Of a stretch of DNA of 55,903 nucleotides, positions 14,618 through 55,903 are shown one piece after another. Location: the NCBI GenBank assembly GCA_027046625.1, contig JALTXX010000007.1, positions 1-55,903 on the forward strand, read 5' to 3'. Each line of letters begins with the position of its first letter. Within the stretch, counting starts at the first letter, position 1. The stretch is from Candidatus Micrarchaeota archaeon. GTDB lineage: Archaea; Iainarchaeota; Iainarchaeia; JAADDC01. Position numbers and translations under genes: made by a program. The notes beneath the pieces were generated by a model, which saw only the letters and a list, made by a program, of their open reading frames with translations, had not been told where the DNA came from and ran no database searches.

Positions 14618-15391
14618 TCAGCTCAGCAGAAAGTCTATAATTCTTTTGATCCATGCCTGCCAGTCACTCCCCCCTTCCTTGGGTTTTACCTCCTTCCCCA
14701 GCAGGGTGGAAGCTATCTCATAGTAGGCCTTTGAAGCCTTTGAAGAGGGACTTTGCATTACAATAGGTACTCCTTCGTTTACGGCCTTTTTTATGGCTGG
14801 ATCAAAGGGAATGACTCCTATAATTTGAGTTTCAAGTATTTGCTGAGCCTCTTGAACGGATACTTCATCCTTGCCTGTAACCATATTTAAAACAGCGCCG
14901 ATTACAGATTTCCCAGCTGCTTGGGCAAAATAGTTCACCTTTAGAGCATTGTAAAGGGATGGATAGTTGGGATTTGCCACCAGCAGTACCCCATCTGAGT
15001 GATGTACCACATAATGGGTATCCTTTTCTACTCCTGCCGGTCCATCGAATATTACAAAATCATAATTAGGGAAGAGAGGCTCCATAATTGTGAATAGGTT
15101 CTGTAATGTTTCGTCATCCAAGGATACAAGGTTAAATGAGGGGGTTATGAAGTGTACGCCGGAGGGATGTATCCATATCATATTTTCCAATCCCTCTCCA
15201 CCCCTTTGTAGCACCTCATCCATGGTGTTGGAGTTTGGAATGGTTTTGAAGTAGGTTGCTATGGTGGGAGCGGAAAAGTTTGCATCCACAAGAAGCACCT
15301 TGTACCCTTCCTTTGCGAATATTACGGATAGGTTTATCGCAAGCAGAGTTTTTCCAACCCCACCTTTTCCTGATAGAACAGCTATCTTCAT
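14618..15391 (-). CDS. minD: MinD/ParA-family ATPase
   Basis: Deviant Walker A SGKGGVGKT, D.PAG, LNMV, IPFD; C-terminal amphipathic WQAWIKRIIDFLLS resembles a membrane-targeting helix. Confidence 0.9.
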   Translation of the reverse strand: MKIAVLSGKGGVGKTLLAINLSVIFAKEGYKVLLVDANFSAPTIATYFKTIPNSNTMDEVLQRGGEGLENMIWIHPSGVHFITPSFNLVSLDDETLQNLFTIMEPLFPNYDFVIFDGPAGVEKDTHYVVHHSDGVLLVANPNYPSLYNALKVNYFAQAAGKSVIGAVLNMVTGKDEVSVQEAQQILETQIIGVIPFDPAIKKAVNEGVPIVMQSPSSKASKAYYEIASTLLGKEVKPKEGGSDWQAWIKRIIDFLLS

Positions 15392-15798
15392 TTCATCACC
15401 TCCCTAATCTTGTTTATAAAGTCGAGAGACCTTATATGGTCTTCCGGTCTCATGCCCTCATCCTCTGTGGGTACATCCATGCCTTCTGCGTATCGTTTTA
15501 GCAGCTCCGCCACCTCCTTGCTTATCCACCCAATAGATATATAGTAATCAAGTACAGGCTCCAGATCCCTGTTCTTGGAGCGTAGGAACTCCGCCCAGCT
15601 AAAGAGGAGCTCCACAGCTCTGGGATTTGTGGTATCTATCCTCTCAAGGAGATATGATTGAGGAGTTCTTTCCATGCCAATGAGCTTCTCTATCTTGGAT
15701 ATTCTGTGTTTAAGAAGTAGGATTTCCCTCTCTATGTTAAGGAGTCTCTGGTGGAGAGAACTCCTATCAAGCTCTATTCTAGGCTTCTCCACATGCAA
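15388..15798 (-). CDS. Archaellum accessory ArlD/E (FlaD/E)-domain protein with N-terminal coiled coil
   Basis: W.EFL...LDYY..IGWIS.....L..Y..G...DH..SL.FI matches the FlaD/E C-terminal signature. Confidence 0.75.
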   Translation of the reverse strand: MHVEKPRIELDRSSLHQRLLNIEREILLLKHRISKIEKLIGMERTPQSYLLERIDTTNPRAVELLFSWAEFLRSKNRDLEPVLDYYISIGWISKEVAELLKRYAEGMDVPTEDEGMRPEDHIRSLDFINKIREVMK

Positions 15799-33901: not shown

Positions 33902-36616
33902 ATGAAGACCATGAATGTGAAAAAGTTGGCTGCCCTTGCCGCTGGGGCTTTGTTTGTTGGGCAGACTGCCCATGCAGCACTGGCAGCTGACACCCTGCCT
34001 ACAGACAAGGCTTGGTACCTGAACAGCGCCATTGTGATAGGTGCAAATGCAAAGCCAGCAGACGTAGTGTGGGCAGGTAACATAGCAGCCGCCATCGGCC
34101 AGATGGCCATCGAAACAGAGGAGAAGACCGCATCCGTAGACCTAAACAACGCCACAGTAAAACTTAGTGTACCAGGAGAGGTAGTGGTAGGGGGTGAAGG
34201 TAGAACAGCTGACAACATAGCATTTTCTATAGGTGCAGCAGAGGGTGGTTTTCCAGTAGCAGCTACATCTGACGATGTGACATCCCTAAAGACAGCCGAG
34301 GAAGCTAAGTATGAGGTAAAAGTGGGAACTGATTGGCAGGAGAGAAGCTACTACGTAACCACAAGGGTAGTACTGGATGGTGTAAATGTAGAAAACTATG
34401 AGGGAGAGCTAAGAGCTACTGTGGTGGGCTACCCAATGTTTGTAACAGAGATATCTGGTGTAGAGTTTGATGAACCAGCAAACGGCTCTGGAACTACGGT
34501 AACCCTAGAAGATGGTACAGACTTCAAGAATGTAAAGTTTGATGTGGCAGGAACAGAGTTTAAGCTGACAAAGGTTACAATGGCAGAGGGAACAGACACT
34601 GTAACTGTTGAAATAGCAACATCCTCTCAGGAGGTAACGGTATACAAGGATCAGAATGTGGACCTTGGAAGTGGATACACCTTGAAACTTGTCGATGTAG
34701 ACAAGGATAACAACCAGGTGCTTGTAGAGATAACAGATGCCGATGGAAATAGCTTTACAGACATCTTGAAGCTAAATGAGCCCACAGACCTGGATGGAAA
34801 GCTACCATTTAAGGTGGTATTAAAGGACTACTTTGCAGGTACTACAACGGCCTACGCTAAGATAGGTCTCAAGGCAGATACAAAATCATTTACAACAAAT
34901 GCACTAATACTAGGAGACGGAACAGCACAGAACACAAGTGTAGAGGTAGACTTTATGGATGCTGATGCAGGATGGAAGCTAAAGCTGTACCTAAGCGATA
35001 CCACAACAAACAAGCTGAAGATAGATAAGTTGGAGCTGTACTACAATGGAGATGCAGATGGTACATACACATCCCTTGACAAGGGATGGAAGCCTGGTGA
35101 AAACATCTTCTTCCCAGGCAGCGACTATGGAGCCACCTTCGCAGGATTTACATCGGCAGTAATGAAGGCAGGTCAGCTAGGTGCAGATATAACAGCATAT
35201 GATCCATCTGGAAAGCAGTACACCACAAAGCTGCAGTTCACCAGACTATCTATGTCCACACCTGCATCTGGAAGCTCTAAGTATACAATAACTAACTTCA
35301 TAAATGACAAGGATCTGTTCGTATTTGTGGACAGCGGAGGAAATGTGATAATAGATACAGATTTCAGGGAGGACACCACAGGTGATAGGGTAACCGTAGG
35401 TGGCCCTGGATCTGAAGCCATAGTAGGACTTAACTTTGATGACGACGCAGAGGCAGATGTGTACTTCAAGGCTACAGTGACGGGTTCCGGAAGCATAAGG
35501 AACCTCTATCTCGACTACGCAGGAGATGGGTATGTAAAGCTTGGAACATACACAGAAACAGCAGCTCCAGGTACAACACTCCCCATATACTTTGCAGGAG
35601 CCACAGGAACTATAAATGCAGTAACGGGAACAGCTGATGTACTTACATTAACAGATGGTACAACAAGTGTAACATTTAACAGTGCAGGTGCGGCATCCTT
35701 CTACGTATATAACAACAGTGGTAATCTGGCAATATCTTCAACAGTACCTGCAACAGCTCCCTACATGAAGGTAGATATAACCGTAAGCTTAGGTAGCAAC
35801 ACAGTAGACGACGAAAGTGCCACAATAACAGGAGTCTCTGTATATAAGCCAGCAACCAACGACTATGTGTCCTCCGTATATGTAGATGCAGACAACGCAA
35901 GCACAGACTATGATAACTTTGTTGTGGGAGACATGGATGGAACCACATTAACAGTTCCAGTGAAGACAAAGGAGACATCTACAGGATCTGGAGTATACGT
36001 ATTGGACAAGGTAGACCTTCAGGATGCAGATGCTACATGGAGTGATGGTGCAAACAGCTATACAATAGATGCTGATACAACAAGTACAGAGCCAGACTTC
36101 ATGTACACCGAGTGGGGTACAGAGGTAAAGGCATACAGCGAAAAGGTTGAGCTAAGGGTGCCAACAGAGCAGAGATACCTAAAGTTCTTTGTGGGCAAGC
36201 CTAGTAGAACAGTGGAGACAACAGGTGCAATAGAAGCTAAGGTAGGAGAAACAGTAGAAGTAGCCGGAACACAAATAAAGGTAGAGGAAGTGACAGCAGA
36301 GGGTGCCTCTGTAACATACACAGAGGCCAAGCCCATGGCAGACTGGAACCCAAGGATCGTATACCTTGACACAGAGGGCGCACAGGATACATATGACAAG
36401 ATTATCGTGGTAGGTGGATGGGCAGTGAACACCGTAGCCGCTGCACTTAAGGAGAAGTTCGACGAGGTAGCACAGGTGGATACAGAGGGTGAGTGGATCG
36501 TCAAGAAGTTCGAGGACGGTGGCAAGGAATACATCGTGGTGTTCGGTTATACAGCAGACGACACCGGCTATGCAGCCAAGGAGTTCATCAAGTGGCTAAG
36601 ACAGAATGTGGCATAA
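33902..36616 (+). CDS. S-layer protein (Methanococcales/Thermococcales-type N- and C-terminal domains)
   Basis: Signal peptide KKLAALAAGA; IVIGANA...DVV.A..IAA; C-terminal IIVVGG.AVN; Thr/Asp/Gly-rich; several NxS/T sequons; own TATA (TTTAAA about 33836) and SD GGGGTGA. Confidence 0.9.
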   Translation: MKTMNVKKLAALAAGALFVGQTAHAALAADTLPTDKAWYLNSAIVIGANAKPADVVWAGNIAAAIGQMAIETEEKTASVDLNNATVKLSVPGEVVVGGEGRTADNIAFSIGAAEGGFPVAATSDDVTSLKTAEEAKYEVKVGTDWQERSYYVTTRVVLDGVNVENYEGELRATVVGYPMFVTEISGVEFDEPANGSGTTVTLEDGTDFKNVKFDVAGTEFKLTKVTMAEGTDTVTVEIATSSQEVTVYKDQNVDLGSGYTLKLVDVDKDNNQVLVEITDADGNSFTDILKLNEPTDLDGKLPFKVVLKDYFAGTTTAYAKIGLKADTKSFTTNALILGDGTAQNTSVEVDFMDADAGWKLKLYLSDTTTNKLKIDKLELYYNGDADGTYTSLDKGWKPGENIFFPGSDYGATFAGFTSAVMKAGQLGADITAYDPSGKQYTTKLQFTRLSMSTPASGSSKYTITNFINDKDLFVFVDSGGNVIIDTDFREDTTGDRVTVGGPGSEAIVGLNFDDDAEADVYFKATVTGSGSIRNLYLDYAGDGYVKLGTYTETAAPGTTLPIYFAGATGTINAVTGTADVLTLTDGTTSVTFNSAGAASFYVYNNSGNLAISSTVPATAPYMKVDITVSLGSNTVDDESATITGVSVYKPATNDYVSSVYVDADNASTDYDNFVVGDMDGTTLTVPVKTKETSTGSGVYVLDKVDLQDADATWSDGANSYTIDADTTSTEPDFMYTEWGTEVKAYSEKVELRVPTEQRYLKFFVGKPSRTVETTGAIEAKVGETVEVAGTQIKVEEVTAEGASVTYTEAKPMADWNPRIVYLDTEGAQDTYDKIIVVGGWAVNTVAAALKEKFDEVAQVDTEGEWIVKKFEDGGKEYIVVFGYTADDTGYAAKEFIKWLRQNVA

Positions 36617-53840: not shown

Positions 53841-53924
53841 GCGGGGGTGCCCGAGCGGCCAAAGGGGCGCGGTTGAGGGCCGCGTGGGTTAGTCCCTTCG
53901 TGGGTTCGAATCCCACCCCCCGCA
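53841..53924 (+). tRNA. tRNA-Leu(GAG), long variable arm, CCA not encoded
   Basis: GCGGGGG/CCCCCGC acceptor stem, CGCGG-TTGAGGG-CCGCG anticodon arm, GGTTCGAATCC. Confidence 0.97.
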
Positions 53925-54797
53925 CTATGTGACATCGCATATTTCCAATCCTCTCCCTGAGAGACATATTCTAACGTAGGAGGGTTCCTTTTCTACATTA
54001 AAGGGAATGGCCTGCAAGCTGCATCTGGCTGATTCCCCGGGAGGAATAACATATCTGTTACACTTTATGGGGTCAATGGAAAAGGTTGATGTCACTCCGG
54101 CCACGTTTGCCTCGAAGGAGAACCGTGTATTTAGAGGGATGATTGCCATTAGCCCCTCCTCTGGATGATAAATTCTCATATTAAGAGATTTCAGGTCAAT
54201 ACTACTCTGCGATCTATTTCTAATGTAGAAGCCTATGCCAATCTTTTCACAGATAACCTCTCTGCTTTGTTGTCCATTGATATCATGCAGTCCAGGAGTT
54301 CCTAGGTAATTACCCTCTACCATGGATACCGATTCTGATCCTCCATCGTCCGAAGGCTCATAAGCAGCCCAAAGATTCTTTTCAAGAGGATCATTGGTAA
54401 TGTAATACCACCCTTCCTCAGGAAGGGAGGCGCTGACATCCTGATATAACCCTGTATATACAGCTATCCACCCCTTCTCGTCGATTATTTCAATGAGTTT
54501 GTTTAGCTCTCCCCAGTTTCTTGGCATGGGCAAAAACATTCCCCTTTCTTTGCAGTAATTGAAGACATCTGCCCAATTTAGTGAAACAGTGGTGGGTAGA
54601 TAATAGTGAAGATAGTAGGTGTAGGCTCCATCCGGAGGCGTTTCTCTATAGGCATCAAGGATGATTATTTGGAAGGTAGTTTCTTCAAGGGAAGTTTTGG
54701 AGGTTAGTTCCACCACAGAAGAATAGAGAACAATGCTTGCAGCCACAGCTATGGCAGCCAGAAGTAGAGTAGCCACGATAGGAGATGCACTCCTCAC
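53925..54797 (-). CDS. Type IV pilin-like protein with inserted C-type lectin domain (paralog 1)
   Basis: Class III signal-like RSA-SPIVATLLL..IAVAA; W....NYC...G..L, YTGL, W..YEPS, VICEK; pilin-type IRN and PGES after the lectin domain. Confidence 0.82.
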   Translation of the reverse strand: MRSASPIVATLLLAAIAVAASIVLYSSVVELTSKTSLEETTFQIIILDAYRETPPDGAYTYYLHYYLPTTVSLNWADVFNYCKERGMFLPMPRNWGELNKLIEIIDEKGWIAVYTGLYQDVSASLPEEGWYYITNDPLEKNLWAAYEPSDDGGSESVSMVEGNYLGTPGLHDINGQQSREVICEKIGIGFYIRNRSQSSIDLKSLNMRIYHPEEGLMAIIPLNTRFSFEANVAGVTSTFSIDPIKCNRYVIPPGESARCSLQAIPFNVEKEPSYVRICLSGRGLEICDVT

Positions 54798-54803
54798 ACA
54801 ACG

Positions 54804-54850
54804 AAAAAACGATGAATAAATACCTTTCGGTTGGGAATTGTTATGTATAA
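54804..54850. repeat. 47-nt exact direct repeat, copy 1 (BRE/TATA promoter of pilin paralog 1 on the minus strand)
   Basis: aaaaaacgatgaataaatacctttcggttgggaattgttatgtataa, identical to 55732-55778; the minus strand reads CGAAAGG-TATTTATT. Confidence 0.95.
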
Positions 54851-54858
54851 ATGCGATA

Positions 54859-55722
54859 TCATACTCTTACGCCATCACACACGTTTATCCCCTCTCCTAC
54901 TAGACAGATTTTTAGCTCCCTGGGAGTGTTAGAAGTTTCTTTCAAGGGAACAGCCCAAAATCTACATGTCAGGCTTTCACCTGGCTTTACGGCAGCTTTA
55001 TCACACAGCAGTTTGTTAATAAAAAGCGTTTCAACGCTCCCTCCTATGTTTACATCTATATATTGTCCGTTATTCTTAAAGGAGGCCAGAAGTGTGTCTG
55101 TTCTATCGTAAACGTTTATGGTTAGATCCTCTAAGTATATCGTACCATTTGAGGACATGTTTCTAAGGGTGAACCCTACCCCAATTCTTTCACACACAAA
55201 TGGAAGTGTTACAGCTCCGTTTCTGTCGTTCCACCCTGTTGGTTGTGCCTCTACCACATGTTCTTCATTACTAGTGTTTGTTGGTTCACCAGGGTTCCAG
55301 AATCCAACCTCTACTTTATCTCCAGTAACGTACCGCCACCCTCCGTCGGGTTCCGGAGCTCCAGGCTGTTGGTACACCCCAATCCACGCAGCTGGCCATC
55401 CATGCTGACGAACTATATTTTTTATCTTTTCGTTCTCGTTTATGCTCTTTGGAGCTGCAAGAAACATCCCCCTCTCCTTACAATAGTTAAACGCTCCTAT
55501 CCAGTTCATTCCCGTAGAAACGGAGACGTAGTAGTGAAAAGCAGAGGTTACGGCCCCCCTTGGTGGCGGCTCTTTAAATACATCCAGAGAAATAATGTAT
55601 ACTCTATTTTCCCGGGGAGAACTTTCTAACATCTGAGAAACACCCATATAGAGCAACGCCCCAATAGCAACCACTATGGCAATCAACAGCACCGTTGCCA
55701 CAATGGGTGAGATACCTCTCAT
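54859..55722 (-). CDS. Type IV pilin-like protein with inserted C-type lectin domain (paralog 2)
   Basis: Class III signal RG/ISPIVATVLLIAIVVA; W..A..YC, WIGV, FW.PGEPT, WND, FVCER. Confidence 0.88.
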   Translation of the reverse strand: MRGISPIVATVLLIAIVVAIGALLYMGVSQMLESSPRENRVYIISLDVFKEPPPRGAVTSAFHYYVSVSTGMNWIGAFNYCKERGMFLAAPKSINENEKIKNIVRQHGWPAAWIGVYQQPGAPEPDGGWRYVTGDKVEVGFWNPGEPTNTSNEEHVVEAQPTGWNDRNGAVTLPFVCERIGVGFTLRNMSSNGTIYLEDLTINVYDRTDTLLASFKNNGQYIDVNIGGSVETLFINKLLCDKAAVKPGESLTCRFWAVPLKETSNTPRELKICLVGEGINVCDGVRV

Positions 55723-55731
55723 CCTAACGAA

Positions 55732-55778
55732 AAAAAACGATGAATAAATACCTTTCGGTTGGGAATTGTTATGTATAA
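55732..55778. repeat. 47-nt exact direct repeat, copy 2 (promoter of pilin paralog 2)
   Basis: Identical to 54804-54850; the adjoining A-run is 8 nt here versus 6 nt in copy 1. Confidence 0.95.
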
Positions 55779-55813: not shown

Positions 55814-55903
55814 ATGGAACCCCTTTCCACCATTAAGCGAATAATAGAGGAGGAAGCCTCCCGCCTCAACATAAAAATAGAGAGGATTATCCTCTTTGGA
55901 AGC
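55814..55903 (+). CDS. Partial minimal nucleotidyltransferase (MNT) domain protein
   Basis: Translates MEPLSTIKRIIEEEASRLNIKIERIILFGS; ILFGS is the pol-beta NTase N-terminal motif; truncated by the window end. Confidence 0.7.
   Translation, partial: MEPLSTIKRIIEEEASRLNIKIERIILFGS

Follow-up and report, generated by a model that had tools for sequence, protein, structure and literature searches.

Two adjacent genes near the end of a 55,903-nucleotide contig from a Candidatus Micrarchaeota archaeon (GenBank assembly GCA_027046625.1, contig JALTXX010000007.1; the whole contig is called the window here) belong to a lineage-specific family of at least 13 genes. The reading that we favor, with moderate confidence, is that this family encodes modular type IV pilin-like lectin adhesins that are displayed on pili and have diversified in specificity. 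An earlier note on this DNA had described the two genes, paralog 1 and paralog 2, as tandem pilins with a C-type lectin domain (CTLD) inserted into the pilin globular domain, and had proposed that they read different glycans. Both are real open reading frames on the minus strand, 61 nucleotides apart (Table 1). Both are pilin-like genes with a C-type lectin domain, and the motifs quoted for them (WIGV, EPT, and WND in paralog 2; YTGL, EPS, and LHD in paralog 1) are present in the places given. The proposed architecture is largely supported, and the proposed function is plausible.

The window is contig C7 of an 18-contig genome bin of 652,019 bp (completeness, 94.2%; contamination, 0.5%). Searching the bin at the protein level recovered 12 full-length family copies on seven contigs. 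A thirteenth copy is represented by its first 26 codons, with which contig C1 ends, and C16 carries a relic of the family C terminus that is 25 residues long. Because several contigs begin or end at family genes, at least 13 is a minimum count, and the window pair are two members of a dispersed family. Pfam Lectin_C was found at 12 places in the genome, 10 of them above the cut-off. Pairwise identities within the family range from 33 to 82%. Paralog 1 and paralog 2 are 37% identical over 290 aligned positions (E = 9e-70), or 38% identical in the pairwise comparison of copies, and since paralog 1 is 36 to 43% identical to all other copies, the window pair is not a recent tandem duplicate; paralog 1 and the copy at C11:10180 are the most divergent intact members. 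All 12 copies are intact, with exactly six cysteines each. Crude Nei-Gojobori dN/dS ratios over the whole gene were 0.29, 0.16, 0.20, 0.17, and 0.22 in five pairs, and these low values indicate constrained genes; saturation of synonymous sites in most pairs kept this count from detecting positive selection.

The central region of these proteins is a genuine CTLD by both sequence and fold. Lectin_C (PF00059) matched paralog 2 with 44.3 bits (E = 3.3e-11, residues 71 to 179) and paralog 1 with 26.3 bits (E = 1.4e-5, residues 72 to 185), so both genes exceed the Pfam cut-off of 22.6 bits. A HMMER alignment pairs the EPT, E, and WND of paralog 2 with EPN, E-D-C, and WND in CTLD2 of Endo180, a domain that binds sugar, and the final cysteines of query and domain are aligned as well. 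A profile of 15 family sequences matched collectin-11 in the PDB (E = 3.6e-16), along with DC-SIGNR, langerin, and mannose-binding protein A (MBP-A). As the earlier note had observed, only the outer cysteine pair of the domain, which links alpha1 to beta5, is kept: C81 and C177 are invariant in 15 of 15 aligned sequences, and the inner disulfide pair, which links beta3 to the loop, is absent from all 12 genome copies, with V156 at the cysteine position of E-x-C in the Endo180 alignment. Because cysteine-free prokaryotic CTLDs exist, loss of the inner pair is a trait of a subgroup and does not exclude these proteins from the CTLDs.

An AlphaFold2 model of paralog 2, the one gene modeled, was built from the alignment of 15 family sequences and had a mean pLDDT of 89.6 and a pTM of 0.79. 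It consists of a helix (residues 6 to 33), a low-confidence linker (34 to 38), a strand (44 to 50), an alpha/beta domain reaching to about residue 180, and then nine strands to residue 286. Comparison with 48,161 representative chains by VIA-align returned 69 chains with Z scores of at least 8, and the 50 listed were all C-type lectin-like domains. The best match was codakine (2vuz_A; Z = 18.9, root mean square deviation [rmsd] of 1.4 Å, 125 of 129 residues aligned, model residues 52 to 182), followed closely by collectin CL-K1 (4yli_A; Z = 18.7). For canonical animal and invertebrate C-type lectins such as these, Z scores were 16 to 19 and rmsd values 1.3 to 2 Å, and Foldseek gave CTLD matches with a probability of 1.00 and TM scores of up to 0.88 (target normalized). 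Judged by this model, residues 52 to 182 of paralog 2 are a canonical C-type lectin domain.

Both proteins begin with a putative prepilin signal. Paralog 2 starts with MRG followed by ISPIVATVLLIAIVVAIGALLY, and paralog 1 starts with MRS followed by ASPIVATLLLAAIAVAASIVLY, which places arginine at position −2, glycine or serine at −1, and ISPIVAT or ASPIVAT after the predicted cleavage site. Like class III signals, both leaders have a charged residue at −2, G/A/S at −1, and then a hydrophobic stretch of about 20 residues; according to a review, archaeal prepilin processing requires residues of these kinds at −2 and −1 (PMC4371748). The NCBIfam model for the archaellin/type IV pilin N-terminal domain (TIGR02537) scored paralog 2 at 30.2 bits against a cut-off of 20. 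The class III signal claimed for the pair thus holds by the leader rule in both genes and by TIGR02537 in paralog 2, but not by TIGR02537 in paralog 1 nor by Pilin_N (PF07790), for which neither gene reaches the cut-off. The same genome encodes an ordinary pilin of 145 amino acids (Table 1) that starts with MRGISPIV and scores 25.4 bits with Pilin_N (cut-off, 25.2), and family residues 1 to 50 match this pilin with an hhalign probability of 97%. Its gene lacks the promoter element of the family described below. The 145-amino-acid protein is a candidate major pilin with which the lectin pilins may coassemble.

Elsewhere in the genome, prepilin peptidase (Peptidase_A24) is encoded by two genes above cut-off, T2SSE-type ATPases account for seven matches above cut-off, and the T2SSF platform domain is above cut-off at eight places. 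No A24 peptidase gene adjoins a family gene. The window itself contains a MinD/ParA-type ATPase gene and then a FlaD/E-domain gene (PF04659, 60.6 bits), beside a SepF gene; these two genes are possibly a remnant or accessory of an archaellum-like system.

The beta domain that follows the CTLD resembles those of archaeal pilins and archaellins, as had been claimed. Residues 180 to 287 were folded alone with AlphaFold2 from 14 aligned sequences (pLDDT, 84.6), and the VIA-align list was headed by Sulfolobus acidocaldarius FlaF/FlaG (5tug, Z = 8.6) and FlaF (4p94, Z = 8.2), Halobacterium salinarum archaellin (9eq7, Z = 7.8), the Pyrobaculum calidifontis type IV pilus (8fk7, Z = 7.8), and Methanospirillum hungatei archaellin (5tfy, Z = 7.7). 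Archaeal FlaF/FlaG, archaellins, or type IV pilins made up 10 of the 50 matches listed, including the top five, with further archaellins or pilins at ranks 10, 11, 20, 22, and 27. The top four Foldseek matches were also FlaF/FlaG (E = 6.5e-3 to 2.7e-2). These comparisons support, with moderate confidence, a domain that is pilin- or archaellin-like at the level of fold. In Pfam, no family matched the first member, and among the 14 there were chance-level single-member matches only. Two sequence motifs that had been read as pilin type are real, but a specificity for pilins is unsupported in either case. The first, (I/L)RN, is more aptly called an N-x-S/T sequon, conserved at N188 in 13 of 14 aligned sequences, and such sequons are common in archaeal pilins; the second, PGES, is located around P247, a residue that is nearly invariant.

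That the CTLD is inserted into the globular domain of the pilin, rather than grafted onto its end, is likely, and four observations favor it. The strand at residues 44 to 50 (DSSP), between helix and CTLD, lies in a block with a pLDDT of 92 and falls outside the CTLD alignments (which start at residues 47 to 56). Family residues 1 to 50 are shared with the 145-amino-acid pilin, and the strand aligns with the first-strand region of that pilin. In solved pilins and archaellins, the match to the C-terminal domain begins only at about residue 62 to 77, so one early strand of the sandwich would have to come from elsewhere. The N and C termini of a CTLD are adjacent, and the fold suits insertion into a loop. 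The sole collinear hint for the second strand, in the comparison with the 145-amino-acid pilin (GFTLRNMSS against NIYVTNQSN), was not significant.

Variation among the family's lectin domains is concentrated at the binding site. In the 12 copies, entropy was zero at W74, F78, Y80, C81, R84, G85, L88, P91, G108, W109, G115, W129, W142, P147, V156, D166, C177, and E178, and high at positions 146, 148 to 153, 155, 157 to 162, 164 and 165, 167, and 170 to 173. In canonical C-type lectins, the positions corresponding to this second set contact Ca2+ and sugar or border the site where these are bound. The EPN/QPD position reads QPD in three copies, EPT, QPS, and KPD in two each, and EPS, EPN, and QPE in one each; position 154 is glutamate in 10 copies and glutamine in 2; and the WND position reads LHD in four copies, WND in three, WDD in two, and VHD, LDD, and WVD in one each. 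Four of the five Ca2+ site 2 ligands of paralog 2 are canonical (E146, T148, E154, N165, and D166), compared with three of five in paralog 1 (E, S, E, H, and D) and all five in the copy at C9:9183. The two window copies do differ, as the earlier note had it, at positions that determine which sugar a canonical CTLD binds (EPT and WND versus EPS and LHD). Because both depart from the canonical triad, Ca-dependent sugar binding is not assured for them.

A second feature common to the family is an upstream element of 53 to 57 bp, near-identical 5′ of 13 of 13 family starts, which consists of TTATACATAAC, about 10 variable bases, CGAAAGGTATTTATTCATCG, a T run, and CGTTAGG. The core of this element occurs nowhere else in the assembly except for one match with three mismatches and no family gene behind it. 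Two A/T-rich boxes within the element, one after a CGAAAG resembling a transcription factor B recognition element (BRE), are candidate promoter signals by their sequence. The T run lies between the A/T-rich box and the start codon (minus strand, 55730 to 55737 for paralog 2 and 54809 to 54814 for paralog 1) and varies in length, with six T's in one copy (paralog 1), seven in two, eight in five (including paralog 2), and nine in five. Unitigs of sequencing runs X1 and X3 break at the shared 5′ region and at the tRNA. An extra A at 55729 was considered as a sign of T-run heterogeneity and set aside as uninformative, being indistinguishable from other paralogs.

The similarity upstream appears to extend into the coding sequence. 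Synonymous-codon identity is 0.64 in codons 1 to 15 versus 0.32 to 0.56 elsewhere, and the proportion of synonymous differences (pS) at the 5′ end compared with the whole gene is 0.27 versus 0.61 in one pair and 0.30 versus 0.72 in another, which suggests that 5′ coding ends are homogenized among copies. This pattern does not hold for paralog 1 and paralog 2 (0.71 at the 5′ end versus 0.73 overall). At the other end, 4 of the 12 family genes stop 0 to 8 nucleotides from a convergent tRNA-Leu gene identified by ARAGORN, with anticodons GAG (in the window), TAG, CAG, and CAA. The genome has five tRNA-Leu genes, and the fifth (TAA) is 1.06 kb from another family copy; the relic on C16 adjoins tRNA-Ser(CGA). 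A binomial estimate for at least 4 of 12 gene ends falling within 10 nucleotides of any of 44 tRNA genes gives p of about 1.6e-9. This placement suggests that recombination between similar tRNA genes of class II has spread the family.

Toxin-antitoxin type gene pairs of a minimal nucleotidyltransferase (MNT) and an HEPN protein are a further recurrent neighbor, interleaved with family genes at three or four loci. They lie between family genes on C9 and C16, and an HEPN gene starts C2. The MNT fragment at the end of the window translates as MEPLSTIKRIIEEEASRLNIKIERIILFGS, which is also the start of the C9 and C16 MNT genes; the C9 MNT protein matches Pfam NTP_transf_2/Polbeta and is followed by an HEPN gene (97.6 bits). 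Since C2 opens with an HEPN gene and then a family gene, and C7 ends in an MNT gene, the two contigs are possibly neighbors. Combined, these features could describe an archaeal contingency system for host recognition, in which at least 13 lectin-pilin cassettes with a common promoter would be switched on or off one by one at T runs of 6 to 9, homogenized at their 5′ ends by gene conversion, seeded by recombination at near-identical tRNA-Leu genes, and retained through interleaved MNT-HEPN pairs. We regard this fuller scheme as speculative and doubtful.

Several observations weigh against a family of pilus-displayed lectins. On the pilin side, TIGR02537 scored paralog 1 at 12.9 bits, below its cut-off of 20, and Pilin_N scored paralog 2 at 16.3 bits (cut-off, 25.2; profile positions 1 to 35 of 78) and gave no match in paralog 1; a Pilin_N score below cut-off is expected if the CTLD interrupts the region that the model covers. 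Fold scores for the C-terminal domain were middling, with two chains only at a Z of at least 8 and nothing from Foldseek at an E value of 0.001, and its profile did not match the 145-amino-acid pilin significantly (probability, 0.8%). By genome coordinates, none of the 12 family genes adjoins a pilus ATPase or platform gene. On the lectin side, the fully canonical combination of QPD, E, and WND occurs in 1 of 12 copies (C9:9183-10055), and both window copies carry threonine or serine where asparagine or aspartate is expected, with a histidine in paralog 1 also replacing the asparagine of WND. Paralog 1 has a GTG start and the shortest T run, so that it may be poorly expressed, and the genome is a metagenome bin.

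The absence of adjoining pilus machinery, together with the bulk of a 130-residue insertion in a repeating filament subunit, would fit lectins of the cell surface whose class III signal serves only as a membrane anchor or in a short assembly of the pseudopilus or bindosome kind, with no extended pilus. Class III signals on non-pilin sugar-binding proteins are documented in Sulfolobus (PMC3047682, PMC4371748). This alternative is unlikely in our view: it is filament subunits and FlaF/FlaG that the C-terminal domain resembles, not solute-binding proteins; a small ordinary pilin shares the helix and the first strand; and no binding-protein domain of an ATP-binding cassette (ABC) transporter was found by Pfam in the window genes.

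The departures from canonical triads in 11 of 12 copies, and the many structural neighbors that are CTLDs without sugar binding (natural killer [NK] receptors, ovocleidin, struthiocalcin, and tetranectin), raise the alternative that the CTLD is a general scaffold for a noncarbohydrate ligand, such as a partner-cell protein, a virus, or a mineral surface, and that the EPN/QPD-like residues are relics. We consider this improbable, because all 12 copies retain P147, D166, and a glutamate or glutamine at 154, the first triad position is always E, Q, or K, and changes are confined to residues that tune specificity. Distant members of the family (P0041 and the G004 copies, described below) also keep canonical EPN/QPD with WND, WDD, or FND.

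Full-length relatives of the family are few. Among 41 related genomes, full-length relatives were found in one congener only (G004), which has four copies of full or almost full length as well as a longer multidomain form; the genus has five other genomes in this set, and four of them, which are 78 to 83% complete, had no family match. A phmmer search of 1.84 billion representatives returned 3,839 proteins at an E value of ≤0.001. Of the 150 matches listed, only eight aligned over the whole length: five from this genome, and three of the G004 type and P0041, a metagenome protein that keeps EPN, E-D-Y-C, and WND. The remaining matches listed covered the CTLD only and included an animal mannose receptor and cysteine-free prokaryotic CTLD repeats sharing PxEPxGGWxWxTG. 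A word-index protein search found only the genome's own 11 paralogs among 874 candidates, and the ESM Atlas gave no usable match. In nucleotide collections, none of 124 pattern matches in genome contigs was confirmed with paralog 2 as the query, a G004 copy recovered only the three loci of G004 itself, none of 34 pattern matches in viral contigs was confirmed, and 2 of 94 in metagenome contigs were confirmed with an eight-sequence alignment, both over the N-terminal 27 to 40 residues only.

A maximum-likelihood tree of 17 sequences places all 12 copies of this genome in a single clade (support, 100/99), to which neither P0041 nor any G004 copy belongs. The cysteinyl-tRNA synthetases (CysRS) of the two genomes are 72% identical, compared with 39% for the closest pair of family members across genomes. 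Such a pattern points either to independent expansion with rapid evolution or to concerted evolution inside each genome. Three of the G004 relatives (L011:1099-1150, L014 minus strand at about 2340 to 2400, and L033:41-100) have a run of (AG)6-7 upstream; two of them have TCA in place of ATG and no canonical start before the R-G-V-S-P site, and the third is read with an ATG that lies 33 codons farther upstream, so that its frame includes the AG run.

Self-recognition for aggregation or DNA exchange, as proposed for the Ups pili of Sulfolobales, is a further alternative to attachment to a host. The pilin UpsA is proposed to read surface-layer (S-layer) N-glycans within a species (PMC7064770), the family proteins carry a conserved sequon, and the window encodes an S-layer-like protein of the organism's own. 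Thirteen diversified copies exceed what one self glycan would need, however, and separate clades in two congeneric genomes, evolving much faster than CysRS, fit changing external targets better, so that we give self-recognition little credence. Generation of the diversity by a diversity-generating retroelement (DGR) was rejected, as RVT_1 (PF00078) had no match in a genome that is 94% complete (the search covered the reverse transcriptase, not template repeats), and a transmembrane type II receptor of the kind found in genome G011 was rejected because the window genes carry a pilin-type leader.

Lectin_C domains of any kind were found in 4 of the 215 genomes of the class that were searched, all from one order (G000, the present genome; G004; G011; and G015). 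The G011 protein (C60; L027:1306-1860) has 184 amino acids, one membrane helix, and a QPD-type CTLD, and recalls animal type II lectin receptors. The G015 protein (C49; L024:226-3309) has 1,027 amino acids, an N-terminal hydrophobic helix, Ig-like regions, and three CTLDs.

Features of the two window genes and their surroundings are collected in Table 1. The rest of the window encodes RNA polymerase, EF-1alpha, EF-2, ribosomal proteins, Cdc6, exosome, proteasome, CysRS, and the S-layer-like protein; since these neighbors are archaeal housekeeping genes, the window family genes sit in the core genome. The S-layer-like protein has 904 amino acids and an S-layer like family outer domain (PF05124, 61.1 bits), and is probably the organism's own S-layer protein; it is 39 to 40% identical to its match in congener G001, and G004 has none at an E value of ≤1e-10.

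Table 1. Coordinates of the lectin-pilin genes, their parts, and neighboring or related loci (window positions unless a contig or locus is named)
Feature	Coordinates	Strand	Description
Paralog 2 CDS	54859..55722	minus	287 aa, ATG start; signal and helix, strand A, CTLD, putative pilin-type beta-sandwich
Paralog 2 residues 1-33	55624..55722	minus	MRG leader (R at −2, G at −1) and hydrophobic alpha-1 helix
Paralog 2 residues 44-50	55573..55593	minus	Beta strand in the helix-CTLD interval; proposed first strand of a split pilin sandwich
Paralog 2 residues 52-182	55177..55569	minus	C-type lectin domain; EPT 146-148, E154, WND 164-166, C81-C177
Paralog 2 residues 183-287	54862..55176	minus	Beta-sandwich; four invariant Cys (240, 253, 273, 282); N188 sequon
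Upstream element, paralog 2	55723..55778	minus	TTATACATAAC-N10-CGAAAGGTATTTATTCATCG-T8-CGTTAGG, immediately 5′ of ATG
Paralog 1 CDS	53925..54797	minus	290 aa, GTG start; YTGL, EPS, E, LHD
Paralog 1 Lectin_C region	54243-54584	minus	Residues 72-185, 26.3 bits
Upstream element, paralog 1	54798..54850	minus	Same element with T6 run; CGTTGT 5′ of GTG
tRNA-Leu(GAG)	53841..53925	plus	Convergent; last base overlaps the paralog 1 stop codon; ARAGORN
Other tRNA genes near family genes	C4:32373-32457, C9:9094-9177, C12:2230-2313, C2:2447-2532, C16:56981-57065
MNT gene start	55814..55903	plus	30 codons, divergent from paralog 2, leaves the window; translation MEPLSTIKRIIEEEASRLNIKIERIILFGS
Other MNT/HEPN loci	C9:10098-10836, C16:58361-59064, C2:93-506		Toxin-antitoxin type
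145-aa pilin	G000 C4:12522-12959; L021:1023-1457		Candidate major pilin
MinD/ParA-type ATPase and FlaD/E-domain genes	14618-15798	minus	Beside SepF gene
S-layer-like protein	33902-36616	plus	904 aa, PF05124

If the family encodes pilus-displayed lectins, the following mechanism can be proposed. Prepilin peptidase would remove the three-residue leader M-R-G/S, and the hydrophobic helix would anchor the protein in the membrane, from where it would most likely polymerize into or cap a type IV pilus-like filament. Such a filament would be built by one of the several pilus machineries of the genome, possibly together with the MRGISPIV pilin. With the CTLD placed between the first sandwich strand and the rest, the lectin would project outward. 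The lectin scaffold, the cis-proline position, and the glutamate and aspartate of the Ca2+/sugar site are kept while the positions that set specificity vary, and the copies may thus offer a range of sugar specificities with which to adhere to glycosylated surfaces. The most plausible target would be the N-glycosylated envelope of a host or partner archaeon. Changes in host N-glycans are reported in a preprint on a Nanobdellati-host coculture (10.64898/2026.06.04.730037).

The closest characterized analogue is PilC of Streptococcus sanguinis, a minor pilin whose concanavalin A-like lectin module is described as binding host glycans and is modeled at the pilus tip (PMC9934059). PilC and PilB likewise combine a pilin moiety having a class III signal with a grafted lectin module. 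The PilC module is C-terminal, after an Ig-like module, and is described as the product of a single gene in the pil locus, whereas the lectin here is of the C type, lies likely inside the pilin sandwich of an archaeal protein, and is found in at least 13 dispersed copies. UpsA is the closest archaeal precedent, as a type IV pilin proposed to read species-specific S-layer N-glycans. As described for Sulfolobales, it lacks a lectin domain, owes its specificity to a short variable loop, and is encoded by one gene per genome in the ups operon (PMC7064770); the N terminus of paralog 2 matched the UpsA model weakly (26 bits over residues 1 to 32; cut-off, 130). Sulfolobus bindosome proteins differ in being ABC-transporter solute-binding proteins for uptake rather than lectin domains in a pilin sandwich.

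With animal and invertebrate C-type lectins, such as codakine, CL-K1, DC-SIGN, langerin, and Endo180 CTLD2, the family shares the fold, PF00059, and the positions of WIGx, EPx, E, and WND. The window copies differ in lacking the inner disulfide and in having threonine or serine as the third EPx residue, and their domain is carried by a prokaryotic pilin, not by a neck of the collagenous or coiled-coil kind. The cysteine-free prokaryotic CTLD repeats (P0026, P0045, and P0147) have GFQPxGSxEPxGGWxWVTGE where the family has G(V/I)YQxPGxxEPDGGWxYxTG, and also EPN and WND. These metagenome tandem repeats lack a class III signal and a pilin domain; by their sequences they are plausible relatives of the lineage that donated the CTLD. 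C-type lectin-fold proteins already described in small-genome archaea are DGR targets of another subclass, in which the fold diversifies a binding surface in Nanoarchaeota and other DPANN archaea (PMC5006420, PMC4372165, PMC7443923). In contrast, the present proteins have a PF00059 domain, their genome has no RVT_1 match, and diversity is stored as many germline paralogs.

Full-text literature searching turned up no archaeal pilin described as carrying a C-type lectin domain, and the main text of a 2026 survey of type IV filament systems in archaea does not contain the word "lectin." Lectin pilins of modular build and pili that read glycans are already known, and the larger finding is the dispersed, co-promoted, diversified family. 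Where modular lectin pilins have so far been characterized, the organism is a Gram-positive bacterium; the present family extends them to archaea and to the fold of C-type lectins, with a likely insertion topology in place of a C-terminal graft, and it places canonical PF00059 domains in an archaeal order.

The sequencing run containing the window DNA was labeled hydrothermal vent metagenome, and this label and the protein composition suggest that the organism is a thermophile. From the 652-kb genome (94% complete) and the small genomes of the whole class, we infer that it depends on a host. About 1.6% of this genome (12 genes of about 870 nucleotides in 652 kb) is given over to the family. 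If the contingency scheme were true, a symbiont with a tiny genome could change which host glycan it grips, which would make the family an archaeal counterpart of the adhesins and pilins that bacterial pathogens have in phase- or antigen-variable families. To our knowledge, no receptor-ligand pair is known through which ultra-small, host-dependent archaea locate their hosts and stay attached to them. The lectin pilins are concrete candidates for gripping the host, with domains of about 130 residues that are soluble and have a fold whose sugar-binding chemistry is well understood.

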